Source: a virus (taxonomy: Duplodnaviria > Caudoviricetes). From it: a stretch of DNA of 64,000 nt. The DNA lies in the IMG/VR virus record IMGVR_UViG_3300050034_000334, one strand, 5' to 3'. Shown here in pieces: positions 4,178 to 42,011 of this stretch; the first letter of the stretch is position 1; each line of letters begins with the position of its first letter. Made by a program: the position numbers and the translations under genes. The notes under the pieces were generated by a model. It ran no database searches. It worked only from the letters and a program-made list of their open reading frames with translations, and was not told where the DNA came from.

Positions 4178-7100
4178 CTAAAAACCGTCCTCAATTGCCT
4201 GTAAATCCTCTTTGCTGACGAACTGTCCATAGATCGAAATGTCACCAGGATCAATGGTCACATCCGGTATCTTCTTCCAGCTGTAGCCTCCGCCGGTCTC
4301 ATAGTTGTAGGGATTAAGATCGACGTCAAAGACTTCAACTTGCTCTGATGCATAGTCGTCTTCATCCTCATCCTCTCCACGTTCAGGAGGATTAGCCCAA
4401 ACAGTCATGCTCACGTGTACTTGTTCAGAATGGGAGAAGCTCGTAGCATTGTAGCCACGTTCAGCAACCAGGTCCACCCACTCATCGACGATCAGATGAC
4501 AGATGCCTCCAAAGCCGACCTCAGCGTCTCCGTATGTCTCGTCCGAAGCATCCCACTCGTCGTAGACTTTCTGCGCCGCCGCCGCGAACTGAGGTTTGAG
4601 AGACTTGAGAACTTTGCCAAGTTCACTGTCAGCCATTGCTGCACGTTTCTGCATCAAGCGTGAGGCAGCCTTCGGATGTAATACTGAGTAATCAATTCTC
4701 CAATCGTCAGAGAGATGACATCTGTTACAAATAGATCTTGCTAGAGCTTCAACATCCTCTCCACCGTGATAGGAAACGATGATCATCTTTTTCAACAGTT
4801 TGTTGAATTCTATAGTCCCTCTCGGTAGATTGTCATATCCTCTTCCAGCATAGGGAAGTCCATGTTGGTTAGCCAAATCGGCATGAAGGTTAGAAGTTCC
4901 ATCAGAAGATTTCCAAGGACCAAAAATGGGTCCAGTTCGTTCTGACCAAATCCACTTGAGTCCTTCTAAGATTTTCCTACGACTTTGCATCAGGCGCGAA
5001 GCAAACTTGCCCTTATTTTCATAGAATTCTGTTGCCTCAGACAGAATGGGAGGGATGGCCGTGGCTGTCTTATCTAAGGTTTTCTTCACAATAACATATC
5101 CTATATCTGTGTATTCTCTGACAGCGGACTCATCCAATGGTTCCCACCCGTAGCTGAGAATTTCTGGAAATGCTCCACCAATTCTCCTTTTCAATTCTTC
5201 AAGGAATAGCTCATGCCGTTCATCAGTATTCATCCAGGAGAAACTCTCTTCAAAATCATCCAAATCTCCATCCCATGAAATAATACCACGACGAATACTT
5301 TCGAACACGCAACCTGGTCCCCAAAGCTCCCATTGAATCTGATAGGGTGGAATATCAATCACACCATCATCTTTGCTCAAATCTACTTGAGATTTGGCTT
5401 CCTGCCATAGTTTGTCCAAAGAACTGCCAACTACCACCTTTGCCGTCTTAGCCAGAAAATCCTCAGGCTCTATCTTCCCTGAAAACAGATTCCGATTCGT
5501 GTAGCTGAGGATCCCATACACTCCAGTCTTTGATGCGGTCTCCATGACATACTCTGAGGAGAACGGAACTCCGAAGTATCCCTGTGGCCGTACAGTCTGG
5601 GTTTCCACCGGCGGAGGAAGGGTGGGATCGATCACGATCCCTGCTTTGGTGACGCACCAAGCATGCTCGACTGACATGGGTCCGATGTCGACGTGACCCT
5701 CGACATAGGTTAGGTTGGGATTGTCCATCATCAGCTTGTAGGCATTCATGTAGCACTGCTTCTGTACTCCACGCTTGCCCTTGAACGAGTTCTTGTCGGT
5801 GTAGTAATGCTTTCCGAACTCCAGGATGAAGCTCTCGAGGGAGTACTTGATGTGCTTCGGAAGCTCTCCACGAATTCCCTTGATCGCTTCCAGCTGCTGC
5901 TTGATCCTTCCAACCGACTCGTCCTCTGACTTGGCATCAGCGGTCTTGCTCATGACCCAGCGGTTGCCCAGATCCTCATCGACCTGAAATCCTTTGCGCT
6001 CAAGGATCTTCTTCATGCTGGGATTGATGACATCCAGGCTGTAGCTGTAATCGTCAAAAGCCTCCTTGCGCTGCTCATATTCCTGAATCCCCATGTCGAT
6101 CAGCTTCGTTCCGATTCCCTTGTTCCTGAACTTGGGATCCACAGCGATGTCGAAGCTGAACTTCTGGTTGCTGTCAGTGACGAACAGGCAGCCCACAACC
6201 CGCTCACCATCCAAGGCATAACAGGCCGGATCCTTGTCACGAAGGATGTTCAGTCCTGAGTCCTTGGCGAGAGTATAAGCCTGGGTGTAGAACGAGCAAG
6301 TGTCGCCGGTGTCTTCCTCATCATCTTCAGAGTCTGGCCAGAAGTATCGAACAGCAGAAGCGGTCTTATGGAAGTCCATCAGCGTGATATGAACACCGTC
6401 AATCGTGTCCATGTGCTTGCGGCCAAAGTTGATCCAGGGTTGCAGGTTGTTCAACTCTTCGAAGTGCTGACCCCAGATATAGTCTGCTCCAAGGTGAAGC
6501 GGAAGATCTCTGAGAGCATGACCTGTCCCCTTGCCTCTGTACTCAGGGAGTACGAACAGGGCGACTCCTTCGATCCCCTTCTTTCCCTGGTACTGCTCTG
6601 CTCCCTTGACATCCGCCGGCAAGGGGTTGTTGGCCAGGAAATACCCTCCGACGATCTTCCCCTCATCCTTCGTGACATAGCTCATGTCGAAGTTGTTGCC
6701 CAAGGCTTCCCGGACGATTGGCTCAACCACATCCGCAAATTGAGGGAAGCAGACTGCTGCGACCTCGAGAGCTTCCGGGACATCCTTGGTGGAGATCTTC
6801 TCAGGCTTCGAAACGGCTGCGGTCTTCGGGACATCAGTGCCCTTCACTTTTTGAACGTATGCCAGAGCTCTGGCCTCGCTGGGCATGTTGTCCTTCTTGA
6901 ACTTCTCGACCTCCTTTGGATCGTGAAGCCACTCGCAGTCAGGTCTATCCCAATTATCCATCAGGTAGCGAGCCTCATCCATCCAAGGCTCATGAATCGC
7001 CAGGATCTGGTCCACCGGGACATCCCCATTCATGATCACATGGCGATAGCCTTGCGCCCACTCATCGAGCATCTCCTGGTCGATCTCTGACTTCTTCTCG

Positions 7101-8794: not shown

Positions 8795-8950
8795 ACAATC
8801 AGAATTGTATAGTCAGTCCTTCATTTTAAGGGAAACTTGCCTTGGAGGAATAGCTGTCGAGCCTTTCTCCTCTTCATTGAAAACTCTCTAGATTTCTCAT
8901 TTCTGCACTCTATGCAGATGCGAGCCATTGTATGAGGATTGTGAGCAGGA

Positions 8951-9142
8951 ATGTCACCAATTTTCCCAGTAGTCGTTGAGGATGACGTCTGGATCGGAGC
9001 ACGTGTCATTATTCTGCCTGGTGTTACCATTGGAACCGGATCCATACTAGGTGCTGGATCAGTCGTAGCACATAGTGTACCTGCATACTCAGTGGTTGTA
9101 GGGAATCCTGGGACTGTGGTAAAGTGCCGAAAATCTTCTTAA
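8951..9142 (+). CDS. Truncated left-handed beta-helix (hexapeptide) acetyltransferase-like ORF
   Basis: VEDDVWIGARVIILPGVTIGTGSILGAGSVV..VVVGNPG; in-frame stop just upstream, N-terminal part absent. Confidence 0.6.
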   Translation: MSPIFPVVVEDDVWIGARVIILPGVTIGTGSILGAGSVVAHSVPAYSVVVGNPGTVVKCRKSS

Positions 9143-9154
9143 CACCAGTATTTT

Positions 9155-9748: not shown

Positions 9749-9766
9749 ACCCATCCGAGTTCCAAT

Positions 9767-9796
9767 TACCCGATCCTTGATCCCCAGCAGTAGAGA
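9767..9796 (+). promoter_or_regulatory. Phage promoter motif TACCCG-N18-TAGAGA
   Basis: Upstream of rIIA, SD GGAGG follows. Confidence 0.75.
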
Positions 9797-9813
9797 GGAT
9801 CGGAGGGAATTGA

Positions 9814-13663: not shown

Positions 13664-13674
13664 TCCCAACAAAT

Positions 13675-13705
13675 GAGGGTGCTTCGGCACCCTCCATTTC
13701 CTTTT
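13675..13705 (+). terminator. Intrinsic terminator
   Basis: GAGGGTGC-TTCG-GCACCCTC followed by T-rich tract. Confidence 0.75.
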
Positions 13706-13715
13706 CGGAGAAGAT

Positions 13716-20225: not shown

Positions 20226-20468
20226 ATGGACTGGATACCAATCAACACGCAGCAGCCTGAGATCAAGGTGATCCATGAGGAGTATGGCTTTCGTAACGTG
20301 GAGGTCATGCTTGACGACGACCAGATAGCCAAGGCTGAATTCCAGATTTGGAAGGGAGAGCGTGGTTGGATGGTTGAACTCCCTGATGAAGTAGGATTCT
20401 ACGCTGAAGAAAACGGGATGAACAAGTTCAGTCACCCCAAGATCAAGATGTGGAGATATCTAACATGA
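20226..20468 (+). CDS. Hypothetical protein
   Basis: Leaderless-type start; coupled to next gene. Confidence 0.65.
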   Translation: MDWIPINTQQPEIKVIHEEYGFRNVEVMLDDDQIAKAEFQIWKGERGWMVELPDEVGFYAEENGMNKFSHPKIKMWRYLT

Positions 20469-20989
20469 GTGACGATTTCGAACAGTCCGTACAGGCAAAA
20501 GCCAAGGAGTTGCTCGATCACTTCGCCGCGCTCAATGAGCGTACGAATGCCACTCGCAAGATCGCCTCTCCTCCTGAGGTCGGAATCATCTTCGTCTACG
20601 AAGGTCGCCTCCTCCTTGACACCACTCCTCTGACCGAGGCTGAAGACTTCAACGACAACAAGAACCTCCACTTCAAGGCTCACGCTCGTGGACACGATGC
20701 CTTCTGGAGCCAGCTGCAGCGTTTCGAATTGGTCCCCAAGGATGTCGAGTACGATGCTGTCCCGCGTGGCCGGGTGGTGTTTGATGTCAAGACCGGGAAG
20801 TTCAGCATCTTCCTCGACAAGTGCATCATGAAGGATCAGCGCATGGTGGACAAGATCGAGAACGAGATGAACCTCCCCTCCAGCAAGACGAATCCTCCAG
20901 TGCTTGACTCTCACTACAAGTGCCCGGGATGCAAGCCCAAGAAGTCCCCGGCTCAACTCAAGCAGGAAGAGGAAGACTGGGATTTCTAG
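20465..20989 (+). CDS. Hypothetical protein with H...YD..PRG domain
   Basis: GHDAFW..VEYDAVPRGRVVFD..HYKCPGC; RKIAS motif precedes domain. Confidence 0.75.
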   Translation: MSDDFEQSVQAKAKELLDHFAALNERTNATRKIASPPEVGIIFVYEGRLLLDTTPLTEAEDFNDNKNLHFKAHARGHDAFWSQLQRFELVPKDVEYDAVPRGRVVFDVKTGKFSIFLDKCIMKDQRMVDKIENEMNLPSSKTNPPVLDSHYKCPGCKPKKSPAQLKQEEEDWDF

Positions 20990-29016: not shown

Positions 29017-29302
29017 TGGCTGCCTCCAGCTTGCTCTTGTTTGCATAGGCATCCAGCCAAGCATTCATCACATCGTCAAGTGTATATCCTTTTTTGATCT
29101 CACATTTGGTGAGAGTAGGAGTTGTCCCGACAAAATTGCATTTGCAGGTGGCAATCTGCTCTCCAGTTGGCTTGTACAGAGTCAGGCTGCTGGGTAGAGT
29201 AGGCTGTACCACGGGAGCCTTCTGAACGAAGACTGGCTTGACCACCGGCTGGCTGGCGTGGATTGGGATGCTCAGTATAAGCGCAAGCAAGAAATGCTGC
29301 AT
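29009..29302 (-). CDS. Secreted hypothetical protein
   Basis: Signal peptide MQHFLLALILSIPIHA. Confidence 0.6.
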   Translation of the reverse strand: MQHFLLALILSIPIHASQPVVKPVFVQKAPVVQPTLPSSLTLYKPTGEQIATCKCNFVGTTPTLTKCEIKKGYTLDDVMNAWLDAYANKSKLEAASE

Positions 29303-30183
29303 AGGGCGGCCTCCTTATGGGCTGATTTCTCCTTCATTTGTTCACTCTTCTTCCTTCTAGCTTCTGCATTCCACTGCTTGATCGCTATTTCCTTCTGTTT
29401 TAGTCTCATCTCAGGAGTGTAACTAAGCAAGTTACCTCTAGTCCAGCCTCTAGAGAGATAACTATCCAATTCTTCTTTTAGAATTTTCTTCAATTTTCCT
29501 TCCCTATTGACAAGTACACCAGTGCCTCTGAGAGAAGTACCACGTTTCCAGCCTTCCTGTAAGTATGAGTTCAAACTGGTCTGAGGGATTCTCTCCGTTA
29601 GGCTTCCTCTAGTGACTAACACCGTGCTCTTCATCTTCTCATGGATAACCTGAAGAGCACCCTTGGCAGCTTTGCTACTCTTGATGATTTTGCTTTGTCG
29701 TACTCTGACCTCTGGATCAGCAAAGTATCGCTTGATCCTGTCACTTTGGACCTTTCTCTTTTCCGGATCTTGAAAATACTCGGTATTCTTACGTCTAAGA
29801 GTAGAGAGAGCTTGTTCAGTGTGATGATATCCTGAAATTCCTTCTCCTCCCTTTGTTAGATTGTACCCAAATCTAGAGTCAAATGTCTTTAGAGTAGCAA
29901 TGAAGTGAACTTCCATTTCATTTAGTTCGGAAATAGGTCCTGAACCCAGTATGGCAACTTCAAAGTTTTCTCTTCCGTGTTTCTTCACTGCATTTCGAAA
30001 GTACACCGTACAGAAACCTAGTTTCTTCAAGCACAAACCATGCCTTTCAGCCAAGGTTCTTTCTGTCTTCCCCACGTAGATTTTACCACTTTGGATATGT
30101 CTAAAACCGTACACGACGTTACTGATATTCCAGATTTCACTGGTACTGAGAACAGGTATCCAGACAGGGTCATTGATGATCAT
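29272..30183 (-). CDS. GIY-YIG homing endonuclease
   Basis: VVYGFRH..KIYVGKT, FRNAVKKHG, GYNLTKGGEG; AT-rich; C-terminal GW.RG repeats. Confidence 0.85.
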   Translation of the reverse strand: MIINDPVWIPVLSTSEIWNISNVVYGFRHIQSGKIYVGKTERTLAERHGLCLKKLGFCTVYFRNAVKKHGRENFEVAILGSGPISELNEMEVHFIATLKTFDSRFGYNLTKGGEGISGYHHTEQALSTLRRKNTEYFQDPEKRKVQSDRIKRYFADPEVRVRQSKIIKSSKAAKGALQVIHEKMKSTVLVTRGSLTERIPQTSLNSYLQEGWKRGTSLRGTGVLVNREGKLKKILKEELDSYLSRGWTRGNLLSYTPEMRLKQKEIAIKQWNAEARRKKSEQMKEKSAHKEAALCSISCLRLY

Positions 30184-30246
30184 TGTGAATGCCTTTCTAC
30201 TTATGAATCCGGTAGTCGAAAGACCAAACATTGGAAGACGAAAGTC

Positions 30247-32496
30247 CTATTCTGTTTCCACAACGACAATAGCTGGGAATTCTTTGATTCCCATAAGCAG
30301 AAGGGCATCAAATCTGTGGCCGCCTTCAAGAATGTAGTAGTCCTCAAGGTTACTCAGATTGTCTATCACTACAATGAGAGGATTAATCTCCATAGACTCT
30401 ATAATTTCACTCTTGAGTCTTTTCGTATACCGATCTTCACTGCTTGAATGTGGAACATACTCGTACTCCTTCTCGGATTTCATTTTCACAACACGAACAC
30501 CTGGAAGTTCAGTCCAATCCTCATCGTTGTTATAGCCAGCTGAAATGGACTCAAGATTAGGAATCGTTCCTCTGACCTTCAGACTACCACAGGTGTCTCC
30601 CAGCATCTTCGGATAGAGCTTGTCGAGTTCTGACAGGGTCTCGTCATCGTCATCAACAGCTGCAGTCTTCGAGATGCAAGGGATCCTCCAACCCATGAGG
30701 TTCAAGTTGTCCACCTTGAATCCGAGCCTCTTCACCATCGCCACATAGAGAGGAGTTTTGTCCGGGTTGTGACTCGCGATCACCAACTCGCCATACTTCT
30801 GCAGCCAGTGATTGAGGACCCTCTTGACTTCTGCCAACGATCCCTTGCCCCTCGAATTCGGAGTCTTGGTCAGCTGCTGCATGGGATCAAAAGCATCCAT
30901 GCCGATCCGCTGCAGTCCGACCTGGTAGATGTTGGGAATCATCCCACTCTTGACCACCATGAGTTCGTACTCTCCAATGGTGGCCTCTTCCACGATCTTG
31001 TCTCCCGAGAGAGCCATGTAACGCTGTCCTGTTTCAGAGACGGCCACGGCCTCCTTGTGAGAACCTCCCATGTTGAATTCGTAGTAGGATCCCTGGCCAT
31101 TGTAGGAGTCAGGAACCTCCGTCCCTCCGAGTTTCTTCACCATGGCCTGAGAGGCATAGTTGTCATTTTCGATGTAGGTCTTGGCGTGCTTGTATCCCAT
31201 CTCAGCAATCTTGCCGAGAGCACTCTTCATGAGTTCGGGACCAAATCCTCTGTAGCGAATGTCGCTGTCAAGTCTGTTGAGATAGGCTTCACCATCTGCT
31301 CCAAGATCCACTGTGAAGTTTACCACAACCTTGTCAGTGAAGTTGACCTTGGTCAGCCAGTCATGTGCTTCCGGCTTCAGAGTACCCTCGAAGAAGAGAC
31401 GCTGTGGAGATCCTGTGACCTGGACCTTGAGCCGGGGAGTCTCATAGTCCTCGACAATTTTGGTGCTGGCGACCTTTGCAGGCTCAATCTCCTTGAGCTT
31501 CTTTTCAATCCCATATTCATTGCTGAAGTACTCTACGGCAGCCTTCTCATCGAAGTCAGCGAATCCGTAGTTTGGTTCCTTCATGACTATTCGATGATCA
31601 AGATCTCCATCTCCTCCATCCATTCTTGAATTCTGACCTGTGTCATTGATCAGATCAGCAGCTTCGGAAAGAGCAAGATTCTGAGCCTTCTCGTTCAGTG
31701 TCTTTTTATCAGTGTCTTTCTCTTTCCCAAAATACGTGTAAGCCTTGTTAGAACCCATCTGTATCAGCTCCAGCTTGGCCCAACGCAAAAACCATACGAT
31801 GCGATAGTTCTTATGAAGATTGTTCTTGGCCCAGTTGATCTCATCCTGGATGTCCTGATGAAGAGAGATGGCAACACCGGACTTACCATCCACAGGAGGT
31901 AGAGCATTCTGAATTATGCTATTCAGGCCGGCAAACATCTCGTCATAGTTGGCCTCAGCTTCGATCTGAAAGCTGGCTTGCTTCTCAGGCGGAGGAGTCG
32001 TGTGCAGTAGATGATCCGCAGGCAACTCACAGGCTTTGCATTCTGGACTACCCTCTTGAGGAACGAACTTGTGACGACCGTAAGGCCACCACTCTCTGTG
32101 GGCGGCGGCTGTCTTAGGATCCTCATCCATGTTATCTTCCGCGACGTCAAGGAACTCCTCGACCGGAACCTCATGGATGGCCTGTACCCGCGTCTCCCTC
32201 CAACCTGGATCAAATTGGGCGAGATAGACCGCTTCAGCTTCAGGCAAGGATTCGAAGCCCAACATCACCTTGTACTCATCGAAGGAACCATCCTCCTTGA
32301 GTTGCTCCACCACATAAGCGTGCGGGGAGTGGTGATCATCTCCGACATACACGTCCACGGCCTCTCCATCGCCTCTCCCGGTTGTATCGGGGATGAAGCC
32401 ATAGTCGGCTTGCAGGATGCGATTGTGCCGGCGCTCGCCCTTCCACTTTTCAACCGTTACGGGAAGCCCTCTAAAGAGGTAATCGTGATCGTCCAT
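30247..32496 (-). CDS. Polyvalent mosaic protein: inorganic pyrophosphatase-like, GNAT, ParB-like domains
   Basis: DYGFIPDT..DGEAVDVYVG..FDEYKVMLGF; RYRGFG..YIENDNYASQ; INPLIV..ILEGGHRF. Confidence 0.8.
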   Translation of the reverse strand: MDDHDYLFRGLPVTVEKWKGERRHNRILQADYGFIPDTTGRGDGEAVDVYVGDDHHSPHAYVVEQLKEDGSFDEYKVMLGFESLPEAEAVYLAQFDPGWRETRVQAIHEVPVEEFLDVAEDNMDEDPKTAAAHREWWPYGRHKFVPQEGSPECKACELPADHLLHTTPPPEKQASFQIEAEANYDEMFAGLNSIIQNALPPVDGKSGVAISLHQDIQDEINWAKNNLHKNYRIVWFLRWAKLELIQMGSNKAYTYFGKEKDTDKKTLNEKAQNLALSEAADLINDTGQNSRMDGGDGDLDHRIVMKEPNYGFADFDEKAAVEYFSNEYGIEKKLKEIEPAKVASTKIVEDYETPRLKVQVTGSPQRLFFEGTLKPEAHDWLTKVNFTDKVVVNFTVDLGADGEAYLNRLDSDIRYRGFGPELMKSALGKIAEMGYKHAKTYIENDNYASQAMVKKLGGTEVPDSYNGQGSYYEFNMGGSHKEAVAVSETGQRYMALSGDKIVEEATIGEYELMVVKSGMIPNIYQVGLQRIGMDAFDPMQQLTKTPNSRGKGSLAEVKRVLNHWLQKYGELVIASHNPDKTPLYVAMVKRLGFKVDNLNLMGWRIPCISKTAAVDDDDETLSELDKLYPKMLGDTCGSLKVRGTIPNLESISAGYNNDEDWTELPGVRVVKMKSEKEYEYVPHSSSEDRYTKRLKSEIIESMEINPLIVVIDNLSNLEDYYILEGGHRFDALLLMGIKEFPAIVVVETE

Positions 32497-33227
32497 TAGG
32501 CGGCCTCCAATGAAGACTGGTACTTAACAATCCGATGAACCCATTCCATGAATTCTTCTACTGGGCTGTTCATTTTTGCTCTGTTGCATCGTCCACAACA
32601 GGACACTACATTTCCTTCTTGATAGGGCAACGAGTTATTAACCCTATCTATTCCGTTTCTCGTAAACGAAAACTTGTCAGTCTTGTAGCGAGCTTGGGTA
32701 TCTCCTCCCGGAGAATAACTGTAGACTTGACGAGGTTCCACTCCGCAGTAGTAACACTTTCCCTCAGCTAGTTCTCTGGTCCTCTCCTCAGAAAGACCCC
32801 AGTCAAGACCTCTATCCTTGGCGTTGCCTTGTAGAGTTTTGAATAGCATGTGAAAAGCAGCTTCATGAGGAGGTAGTCTGTTCTGGTACTCCTCCAGTAA
32901 GCATCCACAACTTCGAGTATTCCCATTTCGTAGACGGTGGGCCAGAACTCTGACTTCTTTCCCACAGTCACACTCGCAGCGCCAAATGGCACCGCCGCCA
33001 ACTTTGTCTGATCCAGTTCCAATCCTCTCAAGTGCGGTCAACTTTCCAAACTTCATACCGATCATGTCCTTGTGACGGAAGTAGGGTTTGGAAGGCTTTC
33101 TGGTGAGAATTATGCGACGGTTAGTACATCTTCGACAAGTTATCTTCGCCTTTTCCGCAAATTCATACGCTGCCTTTGTCTTGTAACTGATCTCAGATGA
33201 GCACTCCGGACAACTTCTAGTGAACAT
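32496..33227 (-). CDS. HNH-type endonuclease with Cys-rich DNA-binding module
   Basis: KFGKLTALE..WRCECDCG..NTRSCGC; CYYCG..NGIDRVNN..VVSCCGRCNRAK. Confidence 0.75.
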   Translation of the reverse strand: MFTRSCPECSSEISYKTKAAYEFAEKAKITCRRCTNRRIILTRKPSKPYFRHKDMIGMKFGKLTALERIGTGSDKVGGGAIWRCECDCGKEVRVLAHRLRNGNTRSCGCLLEEYQNRLPPHEAAFHMLFKTLQGNAKDRGLDWGLSEERTRELAEGKCYYCGVEPRQVYSYSPGGDTQARYKTDKFSFTRNGIDRVNNSLPYQEGNVVSCCGRCNRAKMNSPVEEFMEWVHRIVKYQSSLEAA

Positions 33228-33257
33228 AGATAGACCTCACTATTGAGGCTGGTAGTC

Positions 33258-36242
33258 CTAATGTTCGAAAGCACTAATGAATATTCTTCTGTTTTTAGTT
33301 GGCAACTTGATTGCAACATTAGCTGCTTCTTCTAAGATTGCTTCCTTTCGATGGAACTTGTCAGCGCAGTCAGGACAGACGACCTTCTTGTTCACTTCGA
33401 GGACATCGTCACCATTGAGATGTTCACCACATTCCTGACAGTTCTCGACGCCTTCCCGGGGATCGCTGGCCTTCTTTCTAATAAAGGTTGGCATCTTGGT
33501 CTTTCTGCCAACGAAGATGTTCATTCCTTCCAGCTTGATTCCATCAGAGGCTGATACATATTCGTCGTCGATAGGATTCAACTTCCAATCAACCGAACTG
33601 TTCTCCACTATCTGCTGGGTATCCGCATCCCAGCCACGACCTCCTTGGAACTGCCCTTCGAGTACCTGACCACCTTCTACTGGAACAGCAATGACTCCAT
33701 AATCGTGATAGTAGTCAATCAGAGAACGCTGCTCCTCATTGAAGTTTTTAGGGTATTCTTCATCATTATCTCCATTATTCATGCTCTCCATCCAGACATT
33801 GTACTCTGCGTTGGTGGTCCTCTCAAAATTCTCGAGCCACTCTCTGATCTGGGCTGAAGTGCCGTTCACTCCTGACGAGACAAGGGTTCCTGCGCTTGCT
33901 CCATAGTACCTGAAGTAGAGAGCATAGATCTCTGGTTCTTCACTAGCCTTTTTGGTGGTCTTGATCTTTGGGCACTTCAGTATTCTACCCACAGCTAGTG
34001 AGTTTAGTGCATCGATCTTGATTCCTTCTGAAACAGATACCTCGAGGGAAGATGGCTCCAATCTCCATGTTCCGTATTGCCCCTGGCGCCTGGTCATGGG
34101 ACTGCGTTCTCCACTGAAAGTGCCTGTGTATATCCGGCCTCCTTCAGTGGGCACAATAGCAGGATTTAGACCCTCAGCATAGTAGTTGCATAGCTCTTCC
34201 TGATCATGAGCCAACGTGTCTTCATTGAGGTATTTGTTGAATGTGGTCTTGTCAAAATCATCATCTAGCCACTGCTTGATGGCTTCAAGAGACCCAGAAA
34301 ACCCAGTTGCGATCCCATCAGTAACTCCCAGCAGTTCCATGAACAGCAAGGAGTATTTTTCCTCCTCGTCACTTCCATTCAGACGGAACTTGGGAAGGTG
34401 GATCTGCTTACCCACAAAGTTGGCATTCATCCCCTCAATCTTGATGCCTTCAGAAGCAGTGACCTTTGTGTCAGAGGGGAACATCCTCCAACTGGTGCTG
34501 GCATTCCAACGCATCTCTTGGACCAACCCTCCCTCTGCAGGGATGGCGATTGCATCCAAGGTGCCAAACCTCTTGCACAGTTCCTTCTGATCAGGAGTGA
34601 AGTTGAGAGGAAACTCATCAGAATCTTCTGGTCTGTTTCCTGGCCAATCCAGGCTCGTGTTGAGGGCCTTGACATGTTTGTCGTATATGGAATATGTGGT
34701 CTTTTCGAAGTTGTTGACCCACTCCACGATCTGTTTGGCAGTCCCGTTGAACCCGGTCGTATAGATGGTGTCCGGCTTCCTACCATTGAAGCACAGAGCA
34801 TAGACCGTGTCATCTTCGGGAGTGAGAGGTTCCTCAGGAGGATTGTTTCTCATCACTTCGGAGTCTCTCAGTTCCCCGGCTTGCTTGGCTTTTCCTTCAA
34901 CCAAGCCATGAATCAGATCCTTGGACTCTTCGAACAGAGTGACAATGCCTGGATGGTAATCTTTCGGGTTGTCCTTGATGTCCTGCTCAATCTCTTCCAG
35001 GGTAAACCACTCGATGCTGTCATTCTCCCACTCATGACCGAAGGTCGGCTGGAAGGCGAACTCCTCGTCCACCACACCGATGAAATTTGAATATGTGAAA
35101 TCTTCTTTCTTAAACACGAAGGCAGCATGAGTCTTGATGGGACCTGAATACCCGGTCTCTTCCTGCAACTCAGTCCTAGCACTCTCTTCGGGAGACATAT
35201 CCTTCTTGACCGCTCCACCCAGGGTGCCCCAGCAGTTGCCCTCTTCGACCTTATCGCTTCTCCATGCCAGACAGATCCGCTTGGTCTCGCTGCAGATCGG
35301 AACGACACCAGAGGACTGAGCTTTCCAACTGTCGTCTGAAGCAGTCCTCTTGATCACTTCATTGAACGGAATGAAGGAGTCCTTGTCACCCTTGTTCTTC
35401 ATTTCCAGACGAATCCCTTCAGCCGTCGAAACAGTATTGCCTTCATCCGATTCTTTGAAGTTAGGAGATATCCATGCACGGACTTTTCCACCCTCTGTGG
35501 GAAAGGCATACAGAGCGAAGTATTTGGCCGTGAACTGGTTCTTCTCACTGTCACGTGCCCACTCAGTGATCTCAGGTAGCGTCCCGGTCATGCTTGTGGG
35601 CTGCAGCATGGGAGTTCTCTGGTCTTGCATGGTGACATAGAACAGAGAGTACCGATCATCCTCTTCCTCGCCAGCCGTATGAGGTCCTCCCTTTTGGGTG
35701 CGGACCATTCCCTGTCCTGGCTGGTTCTTCGTGGTGTGAGCACAGAACTTCAGGGCCTCGTCGTTGGACAATGGGACTCCGAACCAGACATCATTCACGC
35801 TGTTTTCACCAGAGGACTCGACTACCTTACCATCTTTCAATCCCCAGGTGTGCTGATGCCAGCCTTGAAAGTTGTGGCCATACCCGATGACGATGGTGTC
35901 TATCTTCCCCTTTTCATAGAGAGTCGCGATGTTCCAGTGACAGTCGCCTTCAGACATGGGGATAAGAGATGGACGTCCTCTGTAAGCAACTCCTCTATGA
36001 GCGATAGCTGTTGAGTCGGGATCGTTCTTTAGTTGACCTCCACTTGTAGTGTCTCCTGGCGCCAGACTACGAAGTTTCTTGGTCAGTTCTGCTGAAGATC
36101 CCTCCTTGAATAGAGCAGGATTCATCTCTTCAAGAGGCAATATCTCGTTCTCATCCTGGCGGTTGTCAGGATCTAGAGCCCATCCGTTAGACATTGGTTC
36201 GAATTCTGGACGGGTAGCGAGAGGAGGATTCTTTCTGCTCAC
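33258..36242 (-). CDS. Polyvalent mosaic protein: transglutaminase-like, Nudix hydrolase and four copies of a novel domain
   Basis: GDCHWN..QHTWG; WGTLGGAVKKDMSPEESARTELQEETG; repeated Y[AS]LxF..GT..I.EW..P.EGG..EGI. Confidence 0.8.
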   Translation of the reverse strand: MSRKNPPLATRPEFEPMSNGWALDPDNRQDENEILPLEEMNPALFKEGSSAELTKKLRSLAPGDTTSGGQLKNDPDSTAIAHRGVAYRGRPSLIPMSEGDCHWNIATLYEKGKIDTIVIGYGHNFQGWHQHTWGLKDGKVVESSGENSVNDVWFGVPLSNDEALKFCAHTTKNQPGQGMVRTQKGGPHTAGEEEDDRYSLFYVTMQDQRTPMLQPTSMTGTLPEITEWARDSEKNQFTAKYFALYAFPTEGGKVRAWISPNFKESDEGNTVSTAEGIRLEMKNKGDKDSFIPFNEVIKRTASDDSWKAQSSGVVPICSETKRICLAWRSDKVEEGNCWGTLGGAVKKDMSPEESARTELQEETGYSGPIKTHAAFVFKKEDFTYSNFIGVVDEEFAFQPTFGHEWENDSIEWFTLEEIEQDIKDNPKDYHPGIVTLFEESKDLIHGLVEGKAKQAGELRDSEVMRNNPPEEPLTPEDDTVYALCFNGRKPDTIYTTGFNGTAKQIVEWVNNFEKTTYSIYDKHVKALNTSLDWPGNRPEDSDEFPLNFTPDQKELCKRFGTLDAIAIPAEGGLVQEMRWNASTSWRMFPSDTKVTASEGIKIEGMNANFVGKQIHLPKFRLNGSDEEEKYSLLFMELLGVTDGIATGFSGSLEAIKQWLDDDFDKTTFNKYLNEDTLAHDQEELCNYYAEGLNPAIVPTEGGRIYTGTFSGERSPMTRRQGQYGTWRLEPSSLEVSVSEGIKIDALNSLAVGRILKCPKIKTTKKASEEPEIYALYFRYYGASAGTLVSSGVNGTSAQIREWLENFERTTNAEYNVWMESMNNGDNDEEYPKNFNEEQRSLIDYYHDYGVIAVPVEGGQVLEGQFQGGRGWDADTQQIVENSSVDWKLNPIDDEYVSASDGIKLEGMNIFVGRKTKMPTFIRKKASDPREGVENCQECGEHLNGDDVLEVNKKVVCPDCADKFHRKEAILEEAANVAIKLPTKNRRIFISAFEH

Positions 36243-36251
36243 CAGTTCCTC

Positions 36252-38924
36252 CTACTGTCCGTGTCTCCACAAGCCATAGGCTTCCATGGGATCGTCGACG
36301 ATTTCAACTTCGTCGGGATCGTCATCCAGAGTCAGGTCATATCTGCGACATTCCGGATTCATGCATTTGCGGACCCGCTTGTGATCAGGAGTGCCCGAGG
36401 GTTCCCACTCGAGCTTGTGTTCGCAGTCAGGGCAGTAATCGCAGTTGGGGCACTCACCTTCTGCCGTGTCTCCCTTGCAGTTTTCACACACATCACAGTT
36501 GGTGCAACGACCCTGCTCATCGAACTTCTTCTCACCGCAGTTTGCACACTCGCCTTCACTGTTGATGGCGGCCTGCTTTAGAAGTGGATGTTTCACGTTT
36601 GCCTCTTTCTTTGCTGATGCCATCGAAAGTTGTGTCCATCTCATCTGGTTGTAGTCATCATCTTGGCTGCTGCGCGGCACTTCTTTCTTCTTCACATGTA
36701 CGATCGAATCCGGATACATGTCTTGATACATACCAGCAACTTCTTCAGCCGTTCCAGGATTGGTAACAACCTTGTCTTCGGCTGGGAAGTCAGCATTCTG
36801 GAAGTGGACATGCCACTCACCCGGCTTGCCGTCAATGATGATGTGATCAACTGGTCCAGACTCTGCCTTCTTGGTGCTGGCGTTCATCTTGATTTTCACC
36901 ATGTCGAGTTCGCCGGTGATTGCACGACGTTCCGACATATCCAGCATCGGATCAGCTAACTCTCTTTCGAGGAATTTCTTCCGTCTCTTGAGTTCTTCTG
37001 GATCCATTTTCGAAACCTTCTTCTTCATTCTCCTGAACTGCTCAGGATTCACGTTGTCATTCCAATTCCACTGCAAACTGGGATGATTGACTCCTGTCTC
37101 ATCTTTCTTTTCGACAGGGTCCGCATGGACGACCGGATCGGCGATCTTGTGAGACTTGCCATTCTTCCGAACTTGGATGTCACTGGCAAACTTGACTGGA
37201 GCGGCATCGTGACTTGGCATGAACCCGCCACACTTTTCTCCACAGATGTCACAATCTCCTCTCTCGTCATGATCGTAGAATCCATGACCACAAATGCAAG
37301 AGGGATTGTCCTCGTTCCGCCAGGGAGCATCCTCGTTCATGGTTCTATGAGGGTGACCCTCTGGTAGCTTCTTGCGAGGCACATGATACTGTTCACCACT
37401 GGCATCTGTGAAGCCGGCAACATTCTCGTCGCTGATCATGGGATCGTATTCAGCTTCAGGATGCTTGGGATGGGATCCTGCCTGCTTGGCGTTCATGCGA
37501 TAGATCTCTTGAAGAGTGTCTTCATCCTGATCAGTGATGGGATACCGCTCTTCCACCGGAGTCTCCTCATCTTCCCATCTGTTCAGAAGTTTGTGCTTCG
37601 TAGCAAAGGGGTTCGACTCCCTCTTCTCAGAACGCTGACGCTGTGGCATCGGAGCCTGACACCAGTCACAATACTTGTTTTCTGGGTTGTTGGGATGCTC
37701 ACATTCCTCGCAGTAATTGGGGTCACCTGGACCCGGCTCCCAATTGGGATCGATGACGGCCTTCTTCGGAACGAACGCAGCGAAACGAGGTCCACCCTGT
37801 GGCTCTTGTACTCTTCGTTCCTCTTTCTTCTGCTCGTCTACATAGGCTGCATAGTCGGAGGGACGTTCCCACAGAGTCTTGTTGCAGTGCTGAAACTGTT
37901 CAGGAGTGGGAAGAGGAGCACCAGCGAACAGCCGATGTTGCAGCAACTTCTTAGACCCGAACATCTTCATGTCTTTGAGTTCCTGCTGGTCTGCATCACT
38001 GAAGGGATTGTCGTAGTTTGTTGCCTGCTGTTGAGGCTTAGGAAGCATCCTCTCCAGGTACTCAATGGCATCATCGATTGATCCCCAGTCGACATCAAGC
38101 TGATTTGCAAGATCCTTCTTGGCCTCGATCTCCTTCTTGATCTGCTGAAGGCGAGAGATGGTGATGGGGAGATACCGGGGATCGTCTGTACCAGCCTTCT
38201 TGAGACTGCCGTTCTTGGGTCCTTCGAATTCCCTCATCCCTGGATACATCTTCTGGAACTGCAACCAGGCTCTCTCCTCCGCTCCCTGGTACTGTCTTTG
38301 AGCATGGCTGACGCCCATGTACTCTGATCCCAGATTGTTCATTTCCCGAGACAAGAGGTTCATGTATGTGCGACGTTCTTCAGGACTCAACACGACCAGC
38401 TTCTTGCGATTGAAGATGCCGCCGGACTTGGTGCGAACCATCTCGTCTCGTGGAACAGACGTGGTCGTGAATGGCTTGGACTCTTTCCCGTGAGCGCGAT
38501 TCCAAAGCTCTGATTGAATCTTCTGGAACTCACGAAGTTCGTCCTGTCTGTACAGAAGCACTCCCCAGCGACGCTCTGCTCTCTTGTTGATCTCCTCGAG
38601 CCGTGCAAGCAGTTCTTCAGTCGTGCTGCTGGAAACCTGCTCGTGTTCAACATCCCGGTCCTTTGGTTCAAAATCGCGACTTGTCCAATTGACTCCTGCA
38701 GTCTTCTTCGGGCACTTGCAGTGTTCCTTCAGATAGTCGCATTCGGGGCAATAGGCTTTCTGCTCAGCCTCGTACTCCTTCTTGCATTTATCATTGCAGA
38801 AGTGGGGTCCACGCAGGGATTCGGAGTGGCTGTAGGTGGTGATGTGACGACCACACTGTTCACACTCAGCAGATCCTAGGATGGCTGCGGTCCGGCTGTT
38901 GTAACTTCTGAGAAGAGGATTCAT
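36252..38924 (-). CDS. Mosaic protein with many CxxC Zn-ribbons and charged helical segments
   Basis: At least 10 CxxC pairs; KxA motifs between segments. Confidence 0.75.
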   Translation of the reverse strand: MNPLLRSYNSRTAAILGSAECEQCGRHITTYSHSESLRGPHFCNDKCKKEYEAEQKAYCPECDYLKEHCKCPKKTAGVNWTSRDFEPKDRDVEHEQVSSSTTEELLARLEEINKRAERRWGVLLYRQDELREFQKIQSELWNRAHGKESKPFTTTSVPRDEMVRTKSGGIFNRKKLVVLSPEERRTYMNLLSREMNNLGSEYMGVSHAQRQYQGAEERAWLQFQKMYPGMREFEGPKNGSLKKAGTDDPRYLPITISRLQQIKKEIEAKKDLANQLDVDWGSIDDAIEYLERMLPKPQQQATNYDNPFSDADQQELKDMKMFGSKKLLQHRLFAGAPLPTPEQFQHCNKTLWERPSDYAAYVDEQKKEERRVQEPQGGPRFAAFVPKKAVIDPNWEPGPGDPNYCEECEHPNNPENKYCDWCQAPMPQRQRSEKRESNPFATKHKLLNRWEDEETPVEERYPITDQDEDTLQEIYRMNAKQAGSHPKHPEAEYDPMISDENVAGFTDASGEQYHVPRKKLPEGHPHRTMNEDAPWRNEDNPSCICGHGFYDHDERGDCDICGEKCGGFMPSHDAAPVKFASDIQVRKNGKSHKIADPVVHADPVEKKDETGVNHPSLQWNWNDNVNPEQFRRMKKKVSKMDPEELKRRKKFLERELADPMLDMSERRAITGELDMVKIKMNASTKKAESGPVDHIIIDGKPGEWHVHFQNADFPAEDKVVTNPGTAEEVAGMYQDMYPDSIVHVKKKEVPRSSQDDDYNQMRWTQLSMASAKKEANVKHPLLKQAAINSEGECANCGEKKFDEQGRCTNCDVCENCKGDTAEGECPNCDYCPDCEHKLEWEPSGTPDHKRVRKCMNPECRRYDLTLDDDPDEVEIVDDPMEAYGLWRHGQ

Positions 38925-38994
38925 CGAAACTCCCGAACACACGATGTTCTACAATGTATTTAGAAGTTGGAGCGGTGTGCGGTATTATGTAGAT

Positions 38995-39831
38995 ATGAGC
39001 GTAGATACCCTGAATTCCTTCATAGAAGAGCGGGAAGAGATTCGTGTGAGGAAGGAATCGGGCCAGCCATGGCCCTGGACTTCCAACGTGATTTTCTTGA
39101 CCTACAAGTTCTGTAACGTCTGTCGCGAGGATGATCGAACCACGCGGTGGATTGCCAAGAACTGGAGAGAACCACATGCTGACGACCCCGATCTTTGGTT
39201 TGCCCTGGTCATAGCTCGCCGCGTTCTCAACTGGCCCTGGAGCATGCAAGCTCTTGGATACCCGGTGCCCTGGGATTCAGCTTACTTCACCTCAGTCACC
39301 ACATCCCTGATGACCTCTGGCCAGAAATGCTACGACACAGCCTATCAGCTTCTCGTTCAAGGACAGAAGGGTGACAAGGCTGAGAACATGATCAAGCACA
39401 TCCTCAATCCTCTCTGGGAACATCGTGAACACATCCGACCCAGGCAGTACGATGAGTTGCGAACCTTCTTCAATCGACTCTCAGCCTTCAAGTACATGGG
39501 TCTGTTTTACACCGGCCAGGTCGTGGCTGATCTGAAGTATGCTCAACTGACGAATGCTCTAGACTGGGATTCGTTTGCTGTGCCAGGTCCTGGAAGCGAA
39601 CGCGGCCTCAATCGAGTTCTCGGCAAGCCCAAGGAGTGTGCTTGGACTGTCAAGGGTTGGACCGAAGCACTAGAAAATCTGAGACCTCAGATCAGAATGA
39701 AGATCCATGCTCAAGATCTCCAGAACTGCCTCTGTGAGTTCGACAAGTATGAGCGCATCAGACTGGGAGAAGGTCGGGTGCGTCCATATCACCCTGCTCC
39801 TCCTATGGTGACTGACGGGAGTTCGTCATGA
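38995..39831 (+). CDS. aGPT-pyrophosphorylase / 5hmdU-kinase-helical-domain-like DNA hypermodification protein
   Basis: FIEEREEIR..PWPWT..YKFCNV.REDDRTTRWI, QVVADL, PGPGSERGL, LQNCLCEFDKYER. Confidence 0.7.
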   Translation: MSVDTLNSFIEEREEIRVRKESGQPWPWTSNVIFLTYKFCNVCREDDRTTRWIAKNWREPHADDPDLWFALVIARRVLNWPWSMQALGYPVPWDSAYFTSVTTSLMTSGQKCYDTAYQLLVQGQKGDKAENMIKHILNPLWEHREHIRPRQYDELRTFFNRLSAFKYMGLFYTGQVVADLKYAQLTNALDWDSFAVPGPGSERGLNRVLGKPKECAWTVKGWTEALENLRPQIRMKIHAQDLQNCLCEFDKYERIRLGEGRVRPYHPAPPMVTDGSSS

Positions 39832-40097
39832 GTGAATCCCAGAAGACTATCTATCCCACTCTAATCGCTGCCTACGGTCGGAGATCAACGGTTACTGTCA
39901 AAGAGGCCATCTTTTTCCTCATTGATCGCAACTCTAGTGAACCCTTGCGTCCCACTGAGCTCTTGAGAGATCTCACTACCAGGTTTGTTCCACCGTACAC
40001 ATACAGCGAAGTTCAGGATGAGATTTCGAAACTGCTGGAGGAAAATGTCATTCTGCTAACCCCGAACCTCCGTGTTGTCAGACAGAAATCCTCTTAG
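39828..40097 (+). CDS. Small winged-helix-like protein
   Basis: ATGA overlap; LRPTELL..YSEVQDEISKLLEENVILLT. Confidence 0.5.
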   Translation: MSESQKTIYPTLIAAYGRRSTVTVKEAIFFLIDRNSSEPLRPTELLRDLTTRFVPPYTYSEVQDEISKLLEENVILLTPNLRVVRQKSS

Positions 40098-40528
40098 AAC
40101 CAAGCATCGTCACCAAAGTTATCAGCATTTCCGTTCATCCATGGCGGAGGGTCATCGATAAACAGAGGGAAGGGATTCTCCTGAAACTCCATCTGAACTC
40201 CCAGTGAAACTCCTACAATTGGCCTGACACTGATCAGAGTCACCATTGCCATCTTGTAAAGAACAAAAGGGAAGGGGATCTTGCCATCCATACGAATGTC
40301 GAATCCCTGTGTTGGATTGATGTAGAAGGCGCGCATCTGATCCCACTCCATGGTGATGCCCGCAAGAGGCTGAGTCAGGAGTAGAAACGAGTTCTCAGGT
40401 GCATTATCCTGACAGTTGCCAGGGTCTGGAACTCCAATGAGCAAGGTTGTATTATTGGCCGTAGTCGTCATGCTTTGAACGACCATGATCGGTCGATATC
40501 CTTCGAATTCTTTGACGGCTAAGAGCAT
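40094..40528 (-). CDS. Hypothetical protein
   Basis: AAAGGA SD before MLLAVKEF. Confidence 0.65.
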   Translation of the reverse strand: MLLAVKEFEGYRPIMVVQSMTTTANNTTLLIGVPDPGNCQDNAPENSFLLLTQPLAGITMEWDQMRAFYINPTQGFDIRMDGKIPFPFVLYKMAMVTLISVRPIVGVSLGVQMEFQENPFPLFIDDPPPWMNGNADNFGDDAWF

Positions 40529-40529
40529 G

Positions 40530-42011
40530 TTATCCTTTGTAGATGTTGACCTCATCCTGAGGATTGAAGCGACGAACCTGACCTGGCTCGCCCAGAAGTG
40601 CAACCTTGCCACCTTCCAAAGTCGCTTTCTTCACAGCCATGAAAGTACCTGACATGGCAAGAATATCGCCAGGCTGAATCATGTCAGCTGTCACCCAATG
40701 AAGTTCCTTTGATCGAGTTGAAGCATACAAACCCCAGTCAACAGTATGATTCAGCTTCTCTCCTCTGGGCACGTCGTTCTCTTCCAGTCCAGGACGGAGG
40801 ACTCTGTTGTCAGGACCAGTGGTGGTGAATTTCCATTCCTTGGTATCTGGGAAGGAGTACTGAATGTCCTCCACCATATCCTCAAGAGCTTCATCGATGT
40901 TCTCGCTAGCACCAGAGACCGATATTCGAATCCACTTCTTGCTTGGGTCACTGAAGACATACCCGCGATCAAGGCGGTCAAAGGAATATCCATGAGAGGG
41001 CAGTCCATTTGCACTGCAGAACTTCTCATGAAGACACATTATCTTGAGACCACGATCGTTCTTCGTATACATCCTGTACATGGGGAAGACGTATGGTCCG
41101 TTGTCAGGAGTCCAGAGCCACTTCATCTCAGGTGCGAGAGCCGTGGGTGTCTTGTATCCTTCGGGGATGTAGTAACTGGCCTTCTTGCTCATCGAACCGA
41201 GCTTGGGTGGCTCATTGATTCCCTTGACGATGCCGTGATCCCAGTTCTTCCCACAGTCGTTGCACTTGGCTGTCTCAAAGTCAGTCGGCATCAGGCTGTA
41301 ATCAGAGGATCCACAGTTGGGACACTTTGGTTTCTTTGTAGACTGTTTACGGGCACTGGGCTTGTTGAAATCTCCATAAGTATACTTGTGGCATGGACGC
41401 ATGTTCTTAACCTGAAGACGAACACCTTGCTCCGGAGTGATTTCTCCACCAGCACCCTGAACTTCAGGTTCCCAGAAAGTACCACCCCATCCACGCAGAA
41501 CTGTTCCGCCATCGACTGGGAAGGCCAGCAAGGGATAGTTTTCACTGAGATAGCTAGCAAGATTTCCTTCTATTTCTCCAACACGTTGAATCCAGCCTTC
41601 TCCAAGATCTGCAGTTGATATGGTGCGTAGTTTTGTGATCCATTGATTGATTTGTTCTATTGTACCATTCATTCCAGTGGAGATCATGGGATACTGATCT
41701 CCTCTAGGACCATGGTCTAGTGCTTTGCCAAAGTAGACTGCATACTCTTCTCCAGAAGCCGTCTTGTTGCCATCACGAACGGAGATCAGAGTGATGCCCT
41801 TTTCCCTGGCCTTGAACGGATCGACGATGTGGTCTTTCCAGCGCACCGTCCACAGGGCCTTCTCATCTGCCTTGGTGGGAGACTTGACGATGTCGACCAT
41901 GGGGCCAAACACATCCACCAACTGAAAGTTACGCTCTTGCTCAGTGGGGAGCAGACCGATGATTTCAGCATGATGCCAAGGATTGGCCGCCAGCAATAGC
42001 TTAGAGATCAT
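40530..42011 (-). CDS. Mosaic protein: novel repeat domain, Zn ribbon, H...D..RG domain, SH3-like tail
   Basis: MISKLLLAA start; KTASG and KKASY boundaries; CPNCG..CNDCG. Confidence 0.75.
   Translation of the reverse strand: MISKLLLAANPWHHAEIIGLLPTEQERNFQLVDVFGPMVDIVKSPTKADEKALWTVRWKDHIVDPFKAREKGITLISVRDGNKTASGEEYAVYFGKALDHGPRGDQYPMISTGMNGTIEQINQWITKLRTISTADLGEGWIQRVGEIEGNLASYLSENYPLLAFPVDGGTVLRGWGGTFWEPEVQGAGGEITPEQGVRLQVKNMRPCHKYTYGDFNKPSARKQSTKKPKCPNCGSSDYSLMPTDFETAKCNDCGKNWDHGIVKGINEPPKLGSMSKKASYYIPEGYKTPTALAPEMKWLWTPDNGPYVFPMYRMYTKNDRGLKIMCLHEKFCSANGLPSHGYSFDRLDRGYVFSDPSKKWIRISVSGASENIDEALEDMVEDIQYSFPDTKEWKFTTTGPDNRVLRPGLEENDVPRGEKLNHTVDWGLYASTRSKELHWVTADMIQPGDILAMSGTFMAVKKATLEGGKVALLGEPGQVRRFNPQDEVNIYKG

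Follow-up and report, generated by a model that had tools for sequence, protein, structure and literature searches.

A Lys-x-Ala motif between the modules of jumbo phage polyvalent proteins, a candidate code of the prohead protease

How are the enzymes strung together in a polyvalent protein separated into working units? This question has been standing since these proteins were defined in 2017, and the sole published proposal is self-processing by embedded metallopeptidases: domain release was predicted to proceed via embedded MPTase peptidases, and no junction motif was described (Iyer, Burroughs, Anand, de Souza and Aravind 2017; PMC5512222). It is raised anew by a 64-kb stretch of an uncultured jumbo phage genome (IMG/VR record IMGVR_UViG_3300050034_000334, hereafter the window), whose minus strand carries five large modular open reading frames (ORFs) of 1538, 749, 994, 896 and 493 amino acids (aa). 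A short motif, Lys-x-Ala followed by a small residue, recurs at the borders of their modules. The reading put forward here, to which a probability of roughly 0.6 is given, is that this motif is the code of a prohead protease that processes polyvalent cargo in the capsid. Much of the evidence comes from relatives of the window, chiefly the cultured Tunturiibacter phage Tunturi_5 (PP885688.1, 309 kb), with which the terminase-primase-polymerase-portal block of the window is syntenic. Sites are written with an arrow at the assumed scissile bond (KTA↓S), and P3, P2, P1 and P1' denote the Lys, the variable residue, the Ala and the small residue, respectively.

The motif was first listed in an original prediction made from the letters of the window, and every listed instance is present in the translation of the ORF named. 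Its frequency was computed directly and compared with 500 per-protein shuffles, none of which equalled any observed count. Over the 4,670 aa of the five ORFs, [KRH].A[ASG] occurs 29 times against 8.4±2.9 expected and K.A[ASG] 22 times against 4.3, while the core triplet KTA occurs 10 times (1.1 expected) and KTA[ASG] 7 times (0.22 expected). K.A is the second most over-represented gapped dipeptide of these proteins (42 versus 22.3), with T, Q or K preferred at P2 and S or A at P1'. A few matches fall inside homology blocks, among them, in the 1538-aa protein, KTRSA↓S 279 and AKAA↓A 323. Comparison with the remaining proteins sets the five ORFs apart: in the other 82 ORFs of the window (15,303 aa), KTA (2 versus 3.5 expected) and KTA[ASG] (0 versus 0.75) stay near chance, and the surplus of K.A[ASG] stems largely from the Lys/Ala-rich tail of a Ku-like protein. 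The codons used at the sites are mixed (Thr ACC, ACT, ACG and ACA; Ala GCT, GCC and GCA; Ser TCT, AGT, AGC, TCG and TCA), so the motif is not a DNA repeat and selection acts on the protein. No enrichment was found in polyvalent or ParB proteins of other lineages, which makes the enrichment lineage-specific. Across all proteins of five genomes, N-terminal motifs showed no general excess.

The sites lie where modules meet. With sites defined by an objective pattern, the coefficient of variation of inter-site segment lengths is 0.55, where randomly placed sites give 0.89 (p<0.0002); segments of 90-330 aa make up 73% of the total versus 47% at random (p=0.0006). The Pfam domain envelopes, namely InPase 8-117 of the 749-aa protein, NUDIX 310-427 of the 994-aa protein and GNAT 666-761 and 846-950 of the 1538-aa protein, fall within such segments. 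BLAST blocks shared with four related genomes begin and end at sites: the block with the HExxH motif runs to KTA↓S 159, that with InPase to KTA↓A 130, and that with NUDIX lies within RTA↓S 301-KQA↓G 455. Five related genomes supplied 29 motif-rich proteins with 52 internal ends of high-scoring segment pairs (HSPs); 21 of these ends are located at most 12 aa from a site, versus 9.7±2.9 for random sites. The junction of Tunturi_5 gp273 that is orthologous to KTA↓S 157-160 of the 1538-aa protein reads RVA↓S and is followed by the same PDF(D/G)YSQY domain start, and the C-terminal module of that ORF is homologous to residues 1248-1393 of an 1822-aa protein of the related genome G002. A novel domain of ~110-160 aa is present in five copies in two ORFs (window 33465-35681 and 41300-41765), each copy starting a few residues past a site and ending with one at all but one junction. 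Its consensus is Y-S/A-L-x-F ... P-x-E/D-G-G ... E-G-I-K/R-L-E, and no match to it was found in Pfam, PHROG or ESM Atlas.

Related strains exchange modules at the same places. In the close-strain protein P0012, the sequence is identical through CISKTAA, which holds KTA↓A 610-613 of the 749-aa protein, and a different module follows straight after. In P0016, the small module corresponding to residues 131-174 of the 749-aa protein is preceded by a Zn ribbon and DPKTA↓S instead of InPase. The claim that the motif separates domains is supported by spacing, HSP ends, Pfam envelopes and repeat linkers alike, and the claim of cassette swapping by these two proteins, which switch modules exactly at the motif.

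On their predicted domain content, the five ORFs belong to the polyvalent proteins as Iyer et al. 2017 defined them (PMC5512222). As in the polyvalent proteins of phages and conjugative elements, many unrelated enzymatic domains share a polypeptide, and InPase, GNAT, NUDIX and ParB-like domains are present, next to a putative zincin-like module. At least two unrelated domains are combined per polypeptide: GNATs and HExxH in the 1538-aa protein, InPase, FR47/GNAT and a ParB-like domain in the 749-aa protein, and NUDIX, the novel repeats and a Zn ribbon in the 994-aa protein. The InPase domain (PF18823, E=1.7e-26) was itself described from polyvalent proteins, and the segment that holds it matches PHROGs annotated as minor head protein. 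The ParB-like label of the 749-aa C-terminus comes via homologs carrying PF02195. The HExxH motif (HELCHH) stands at residues ~93-98 of the 1538-aa protein, where Pfam gives no match at E≤0.01; the homologous segment of Tunturi_5 gp321 scores 24.7 bits to the Pfam SprT-like model, a weak match just below the cut-off of 25.6. The ART-PolyVal domain (PF18760) was seen only in the Tunturi_5 counterparts gp225 and gp321; other domains among the Tunturi_5 counterparts are 2'-5' RNA-ligase-like, deoxyribosyltransferase-like and GNAT. The Pfam scan of the 896-aa ORF returned no enzyme domain. The original prediction had taken the five ORFs for mosaic cargo candidates and had not recognised the class to which they belong.

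Which enzyme would read the motif? The prohead protease gene lies outside the window and was identified in relatives, where the head genes were located through the annotation of Tunturi_5 and BLAST. Pfam searches of four relatives and Tunturi_5 with the S77 (PF03420) and S78 (PF04586) models gave no match, the PF03420 control being silent everywhere, and searches of the relatives with Phage_capsid and Gp23 gave none either. In Tunturi_5, gp331, which matches phrog_18299 ('head maturation protease'), is followed by the acidic, scaffold-like gp332 and by the capsid protein gp334 (phrog_2522, homologous to gp27 of Bacillus phage G). The protease likewise adjoins scaffold and major capsid genes in two IMG/VR contigs (G005, 122.9-128.1 kb, and L103); a further one, G004, is without it only because the contig begins just past the head module. 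Homologs were found in relatives from IMG/VR, in phage G (gp19 and gp27) and in mycobacteriophages of cluster C, and the protease family amounts to 1,754 cluster representatives (E≤0.001; clusters at 50% identity). Two other leads in Tunturi_5 were abandoned: gp90 (68759-69988; L028:18759-19988), annotated 'major head protein', is an AAA+ ATPase with the Walker A motif GPPGTGKS, and gp91, considered as a head-module lead, is an acidic coiled protein.

Compared with Pfam, 24 proteases gave no match beyond Zn-ribbon noise, the family being without a Pfam model, and a profile search against PDB sequences found no relative. The fold was approached by prediction. An earlier AlphaFold model built from the 24 close sequences (predicted local distance difference test, pLDDT, 52) gave Foldseek noise only and was replaced by a model of the L103 ortholog based on a 91-sequence alignment (pLDDT 83). 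The best PDB match of this model is T4 gp21 (5jbl), with a Foldseek probability of 0.99, a VIA Z of 11.9 and a root-mean-square deviation of 2.9 A over 145/165 aa. The next matches are the proteases of varicella-zoster virus (1vzv, Z 7.3), human cytomegalovirus (8j3s, Z 5.4) and Kaposi's sarcoma-associated herpesvirus (1fl1, Z 4.2). Residues H50, H104, S161, S226, E103 and D136 are invariant in the 91 sequences, and the family has a four-Cys insert. The modelled protease thus has the gp21/assemblin fold in a sequence family separate from S77 and S78. A prohead protease elsewhere in the genome had been anticipated, and the lineage does possess one, as seen in the relatives.

The motif accompanies this protease. 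In the 24 close proteases, K-x-A-S occurs in a variable stretch ~35 residues past the conserved PAFPGA; A270 is invariant and S271 nearly so, while the flanks vary, and residues 235-277, which hold the site, are disordered in the AlphaFold model. In a set of 150 representatives at ≤50% identity, 62 of 97 have K.A[ASG] at most 90 aa after the protease core, versus 14.7 expected; the C-terminal extensions contain 142 K.A[ASG] versus 40 expected and the cores 10 versus 15.8. In phage G, gp19 carries KVA↓S and KIA↓S past the core and the portal protein gp14 carries KQA↓A, KMA↓S and KIA↓S, a pattern kept although identity is only 28% and the genome is AT-rich. K-x-A is densely represented in scaffold-like proteins, and in Tunturi_5 the motif is found in both gp331 and gp332. 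The head and cargo genes of Tunturi_5 contain 71 K.A[ASG] versus 20.5 expected (z=11) and its tail genes 18 versus 13.4.

The portal protein of the window is a probable substrate. One of its sites is kept as K-[TVISK]-A-[GASD] in Tunturi_5 and, with a single exception, in the distinct N-termini recovered from related IMG/VR contigs; the P1' Asp seen at KTA↓D 950-953 of the 1538-aa protein also occurs here in some relatives. All four portal sites of the original prediction are present, but relatives keep the position of just one of them, SKVA↓G (100-103). The link that had been drawn to head maturation is supported by the presence of the motif in the scaffold and the portal N-terminus and by its lack of enrichment in tail proteins. 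A sequence near to the portal's TPRKIA↓SQVVT, ATRKIA↓SPPEV, occurs at residues 34-44 of the product of 20450-20989 (plus strand).

The following sequence of events would account for these observations. The phages would load polyvalent proteins, as strings of small enzymes and modules, into the capsid and deliver them with the DNA. The K-x-A and small residue (S>A>G, with D, N and T tolerated) that the inter-module linkers carry would be the recognition site of the head-maturation protease of the lineage, a predicted serine protease of the T4 gp21/herpesvirus assemblin fold encoded beside the scaffold and major capsid genes. Within the procapsid, this protease would cut after Ala, with Lys at P3, Ala at P1 and Ser, Ala or Gly at P1'. 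It would release itself from the tail at its own C-terminus, cut the scaffold into fragments, shorten the portal by ~100 N-terminal residues and dice the cargo polyproteins into ~30 domain-sized products of ~100-300 aa. Since each module would bear its own cut site at its edge, modules could be exchanged as cassettes. Cleavage, the scissile bond after Ala, packaging and injection are the parts of this scheme that we infer.

Several points weigh against this reading. The protease link is drawn from relatives and near-identical IMG/VR fragments, not from the window's own gene, and the module borders were placed by homology and spacing, not by structure. One junction between two novel repeats has no motif. 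When linker character around the sites was tested by composition, the signal was weak (TOP-IDP p=0.04; hydropathy gave no significant difference), and it is not relied on. The head/cargo gene set of Tunturi_5 was partly picked after the motif counts were seen. At the N-terminus of the protease, a conserved K5-x-A7 is placed by the model, with confidence, in a beta-strand aligning to gp21 and may be structural rather than a cleavage site. The motifs of the capsid N-arm (LLKTA↓G, KLA↓A) do not count as evidence, since conservation extends over the entire arm, two relatives read LLRNTGG and phage G is without the motif. The phage G multi-omics paper reports no cleavage sites, and the Tunturi paper is without virion proteomics.

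Alternatively, the motif might be recognised and left mostly uncut inside the cargo, as a docking or capsid-targeting tag or as a linker kept by recombination, so that only terminal propeptides, such as the protease tail, the portal N-terminus and short leaders, are cleaved and the cargo stays long. In SPN3US most protease substrates lose N-terminal propeptides only and 42 head proteins are uncut (PMC10052503), and polyvalent proteins of the N4 virion RNA polymerase type are delivered full-length (PMC5512222). Moreover, hardly any linker separates several of the junction sites from folded sequence, and access to them could be hindered. A mere tag, however, need not recur at nearly every module border with domain-like spacing, and the same tetrapeptide stands in the protease C-flank, the scaffold and the portal propeptide, contexts where other phages normally cleave. 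Overall, uncut sites are regarded as unlikely, if worth keeping in mind.

Cleavage by the embedded HExxH metallopeptidase (SprT-like/MPTase), whether ahead of injection, in the course of it or afterwards, follows the general proposal of Iyer et al. 2017 and is considered improbable overall, though it is a serious rival for the one ORF with an HExxH domain. The model is published (PMC5512222), and the 1538-aa ORF does open with a HELCHH module homologous to the weakly SprT-like part of Tunturi_5 gp321. Nevertheless, only one of the five ORFs has the HExxH domain, and other-lineage polyvalent proteins, many of MPTase-type architecture, do not have the motif. The motif also flanks the gp21-fold protease core in most of the 97 diverse members and fills scaffold-like extensions and the portal N-terminus, neither of which is linked to an MPTase. 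Contrary to the published model, the processing route better supported here, on sequence evidence, would be a code read in trans by a capsid protease. Finally, a functionless by-product of Lys/Ala-rich linkers is scarcely credible, for although chance would give about 8 of the 29 broad matches and the Lys/Ala-rich Ku tail yields such matches, no shuffle reached the observed counts, KTA[ASG] is 30-fold above expectation, the motif is kept at orthologous positions while its flanks diverge and the enrichment is restricted to the lineage.

The prohead-protease code proposed here can be set beside several known systems. In phage T4, head cargo consists of single proteins with one N-terminal tag, which are packaged, processed by the prohead protease and injected; the capsid-targeting sequence of the internal proteins IPI-III and Alt is cut at L/I-x-E by gp21. 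The modelled protease shares the fold of gp21; unlike in T4, up to ~10 sites occur per polypeptide and P1 is Ala, not Glu. The T4/phiKZ type of code, with P1 Glu and an aliphatic or small P3, is thus not matched by the enriched motif, with its presumed P1 Ala and P3 Lys. Herpesvirus assemblins have the consensus (V/L/I)-x-A↓S and cut between Ala and Ser. K-x-A↓S shares this P1 Ala and P1' Ser, with the scissile bond assumed. Assemblin (UL26/UL80a) also resembles the protease in fold and in layout: a linker joins the protease to a scaffold or C-terminal tail, from which it is parted by self-cleavage, as would be the case here; many members of the present family, of 470-540 aa, are a protease with a C-terminal extension. 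The assemblin of pseudorabies virus ends in Ala225 (PMC4498786). Unlike in herpesviruses, P3 is Lys and not aliphatic, a Zn-ribbon insert is present and the context is a bacterial virus with enzyme cargo.

Parallels also exist with the jumbo myoviruses phiKZ and SPN3US, whose gp21-fold proteases (gp175 and gp245, respectively) follow a P3-x-P1 code and cut many head proteins, with several motifs per substrate (PMC10052503; PMC5694885). These proteases remove a long N-terminal propeptide from the portal and their own C-terminal propeptide (PMC10052503; PMC5694885). The jumbo myovirus context, the protease fold and the three-residue P3-x-P1 layout, here read from sequence, are common to both systems. 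The code differs, being (S/A/G)-x-Glu in phiKZ and SPN3US (A-x-E in SPN3US) and Lys-x-Ala here, and the present protease forms a family of its own, which has the four-Cys insert and for which Pfam holds no model. Furthermore, the phiKZ and SPN3US substrates mostly lose propeptides, whereas here almost all module borders of the multi-enzyme polyvalent proteins are marked by the motif. The Dar system of phage P1 comprises large anti-defence proteins of several domains that are carried in the capsid, one of which, DdrB, undergoes proteolytic processing (PMC5512222). Tunturi_5 gp350 is annotated DarB-like and is rich in the motif; the capsid lineage and the protease differ from those of P1. No K-x-A code is known from the P1 Dar system.

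The features of the window are collected in Table 1. Besides them, the window encodes rIIA/rIIB, a topoisomerase, a PolA-type polymerase, a primase and the large terminase. A protein identical to the 994-aa ORF is found on a 342-kb contig, as a cluster member; a megablast of the region against the phage collection gave no match.

Table 1. Modular ORFs, candidate sites and neighbouring genes of the window (positions count from its first letter; residue numbers refer to the protein named)
Feature	Position	Strand	Remarks
Polyvalent protein, 1538 aa	4178..8794	-	N-terminal HExxH (SprT-like) module, GNAT-like module, three more GNAT hits, unknown modules; ~9-11 K-x-A sites
KTA↓S, residues 157-160 of 1538 aa	8315..8326	-	HExxH module ends here
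HTA↓S, residues 338-341 of 1538 aa	7772..7783	-	GNAT_CG-like module ends; Tunturi_5 HSP stops at residue 347
KTA↓A, residues 657-660 of 1538 aa	6815..6826	-	immediately precedes GNAT 666-761
KTA↓S, residues 810-813 of 1538 aa	6356..6367	-	between GNATs 666-761 and 846-950
KTA↓D, residues 950-953 of 1538 aa	5936..5947	-	second GNAT ends here
KTA↓K, residues 1116-1119 of 1538 aa	5438..5449	-	variant site
KTA↓T, residues 1242-1245 of 1538 aa	5060..5071	-	variant site
KRA↓A, residues 1383-1386 of 1538 aa	4637..4648	-	C-terminal module starts; HSP begins at residue 1366
GIY-YIG-type homing endonuclease gene	29272..30231	-	immediately downstream of 749-aa ORF
Polyvalent protein, 749 aa	30247..32496	-	InPase (8-117), small Cys/His module, unknown module, FR47/GNAT-containing module, ParB-like C-terminal domain
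KTA↓A, residues 128-131 of 749 aa	32104..32115	-	InPase domain ends; three independent HSPs stop at residues 126-159
KQA↓S, residues 172-175 of 749 aa	31972..31983	-	
KVA↓S, residues 341-344 of 749 aa	31465..31476	-	
KTA↓A, residues 610-613 of 749 aa	30658..30669	-	precedes ParB-like domain
HNH endonuclease gene	32496..33227	-	between 994-aa and 749-aa ORFs
Polyvalent protein, 994 aa	33258..36242	-	GTG start behind AGGAGG Shine-Dalgarno; terminal KNPP..SNGWAL.PD.R peptide, four copies of novel ~110-160-aa domain, NUDIX (310-427), C-terminal Zn ribbon
HTA↓G, residues 188-191 of 994 aa	35670..35681	-	repeat copy 1 starts
RTA↓S, residues 299-302 of 994 aa	35337..35348	-	repeat copy 1 ends, NUDIX module starts (HSPs begin at 310)
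KQA↓G, residues 453-456 of 994 aa	34875..34886	-	NUDIX module ends (HSPs stop at 448-457), repeat copy 2 starts
KKA↓S, residues 764-767 of 994 aa	33942..33953	-	between repeat copies 3 and 4
KKA↓S, residues 923-926 of 994 aa	33465..33476	-	repeat copy 4 ends, ahead of Zn ribbon
Modular protein, 896 aa (890 aa from ATG at 38924)	36252..38942	-	several Zn-ribbon modules; ~8 sites
Sites of 896-aa ORF		-	include RTA↓A 17, KTA↓G 80, KKA↓G 248, KQA↓G 486, KFA↓S 584, KQA↓A 789
Modular protein, 493 aa	40530..42011	-	fifth novel-repeat copy after KTA↓S 83-86, Zn ribbon, then KKA↓S 276-279 and C-terminal module
Sites of 493-aa ORF		-	KTA↓S 83-86, KKA↓S 276-279
Portal protein, 855 aa	51276..53843	-	variable basic N-terminus with KIA↓S (38-41); conserved KVA↓G-LF (100-103)
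KVA↓G, residues 100-103 of portal	53535..53546	-	~20 aa ahead of conserved NIGY..EFPVD core

In P0012, the HNH gene is missing and the 994-aa and 749-aa ORFs are fused in one reading frame, which additionally holds a ~430-aa module. At 36239-36260 (minus strand), the TAG of the 896-aa ORF is in frame with the GTG of the 994-aa ORF, which follows 9 nt later, and overlaps the AGGAGG Shine-Dalgarno. The arrangement resembles coupled reinitiation, perhaps within a formerly single gene. A peptide of ~45 aa (KNPP...SNGWAL.PD.R...) opens the 994-aa ORF (36095-36242, minus strand) and stands at the C-terminus of two other polyvalent proteins, Tunturi_5 gp273 (L001:25650-25805) and P0013; it may be a terminal targeting or anchoring peptide. 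On the contig of P0016, a ferritin-family gene (PF00210) lies directly upstream of a motif-rich polyvalent protein. A 166-aa ORF of the window (49630-50130, plus strand) starts with MKFA↓SKLLL and, going by this start, could be another packaged protein with a short leader.

In the near-identical head module of L103, a small ORF upstream of the protease gene (L103:2268-3080) carries a sixth copy of the novel domain flanked by KVA and KTA↓G, and a homing-endonuclease-like ORF intervenes between the two genes. An ORF at L103:3107-4096 opens with the first 13 residues of the protease, as in L102, and continues endonuclease-like, the protease gene restarting at 4086, as if a mobile element had entered this gene at its 5' end. 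Most family members (P0024-P0173) have 450-620 aa and consist of protease and C-terminal extension, as herpesvirus UL26; in ~20 members of 860-1,300 aa, the protease match is internal or split into two stretches, which suggests inserts or fusions with other head proteins.

Prohead-protease processing of head-internal proteins and polyvalent proteins are both known; the motif, the protease family and the junction-level arrangement are new. No report of a K-x-A cleavage code was found in the literature, the 2020 phage G structure paper not being covered. A wider statement, namely that a large gp21/assemblin-fold family of at least 1,754 clusters (50% identity), which spans soil jumbo phages, phage G and mycobacteriophages of cluster C, reads Lys-x-Ala↓Ser, and that dozens of host-takeover enzymes are produced as a handful of giant precursors, taken into the procapsid and diced at every domain border, is made tentatively, at a little short of even odds. 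The capsid-protease code at domain borders provides an alternative to self-processing that is testable, with a probable enzyme, a fold and predicted sites, and it offers a candidate specificity for a large capsid-protease family without Pfam model or name in the sequence databases searched. Tunturi_5 and phage G are cultured members in which the proposal can be tested by mass spectrometry. If true, the motif would predict the mature virion cargo of thousands of metagenomic phages, and phage and herpesvirus protease specificities would be linked through Ala↓Ser. The wider reading would account both for the processing of polyvalent proteins and for the free shuffling of their modules.

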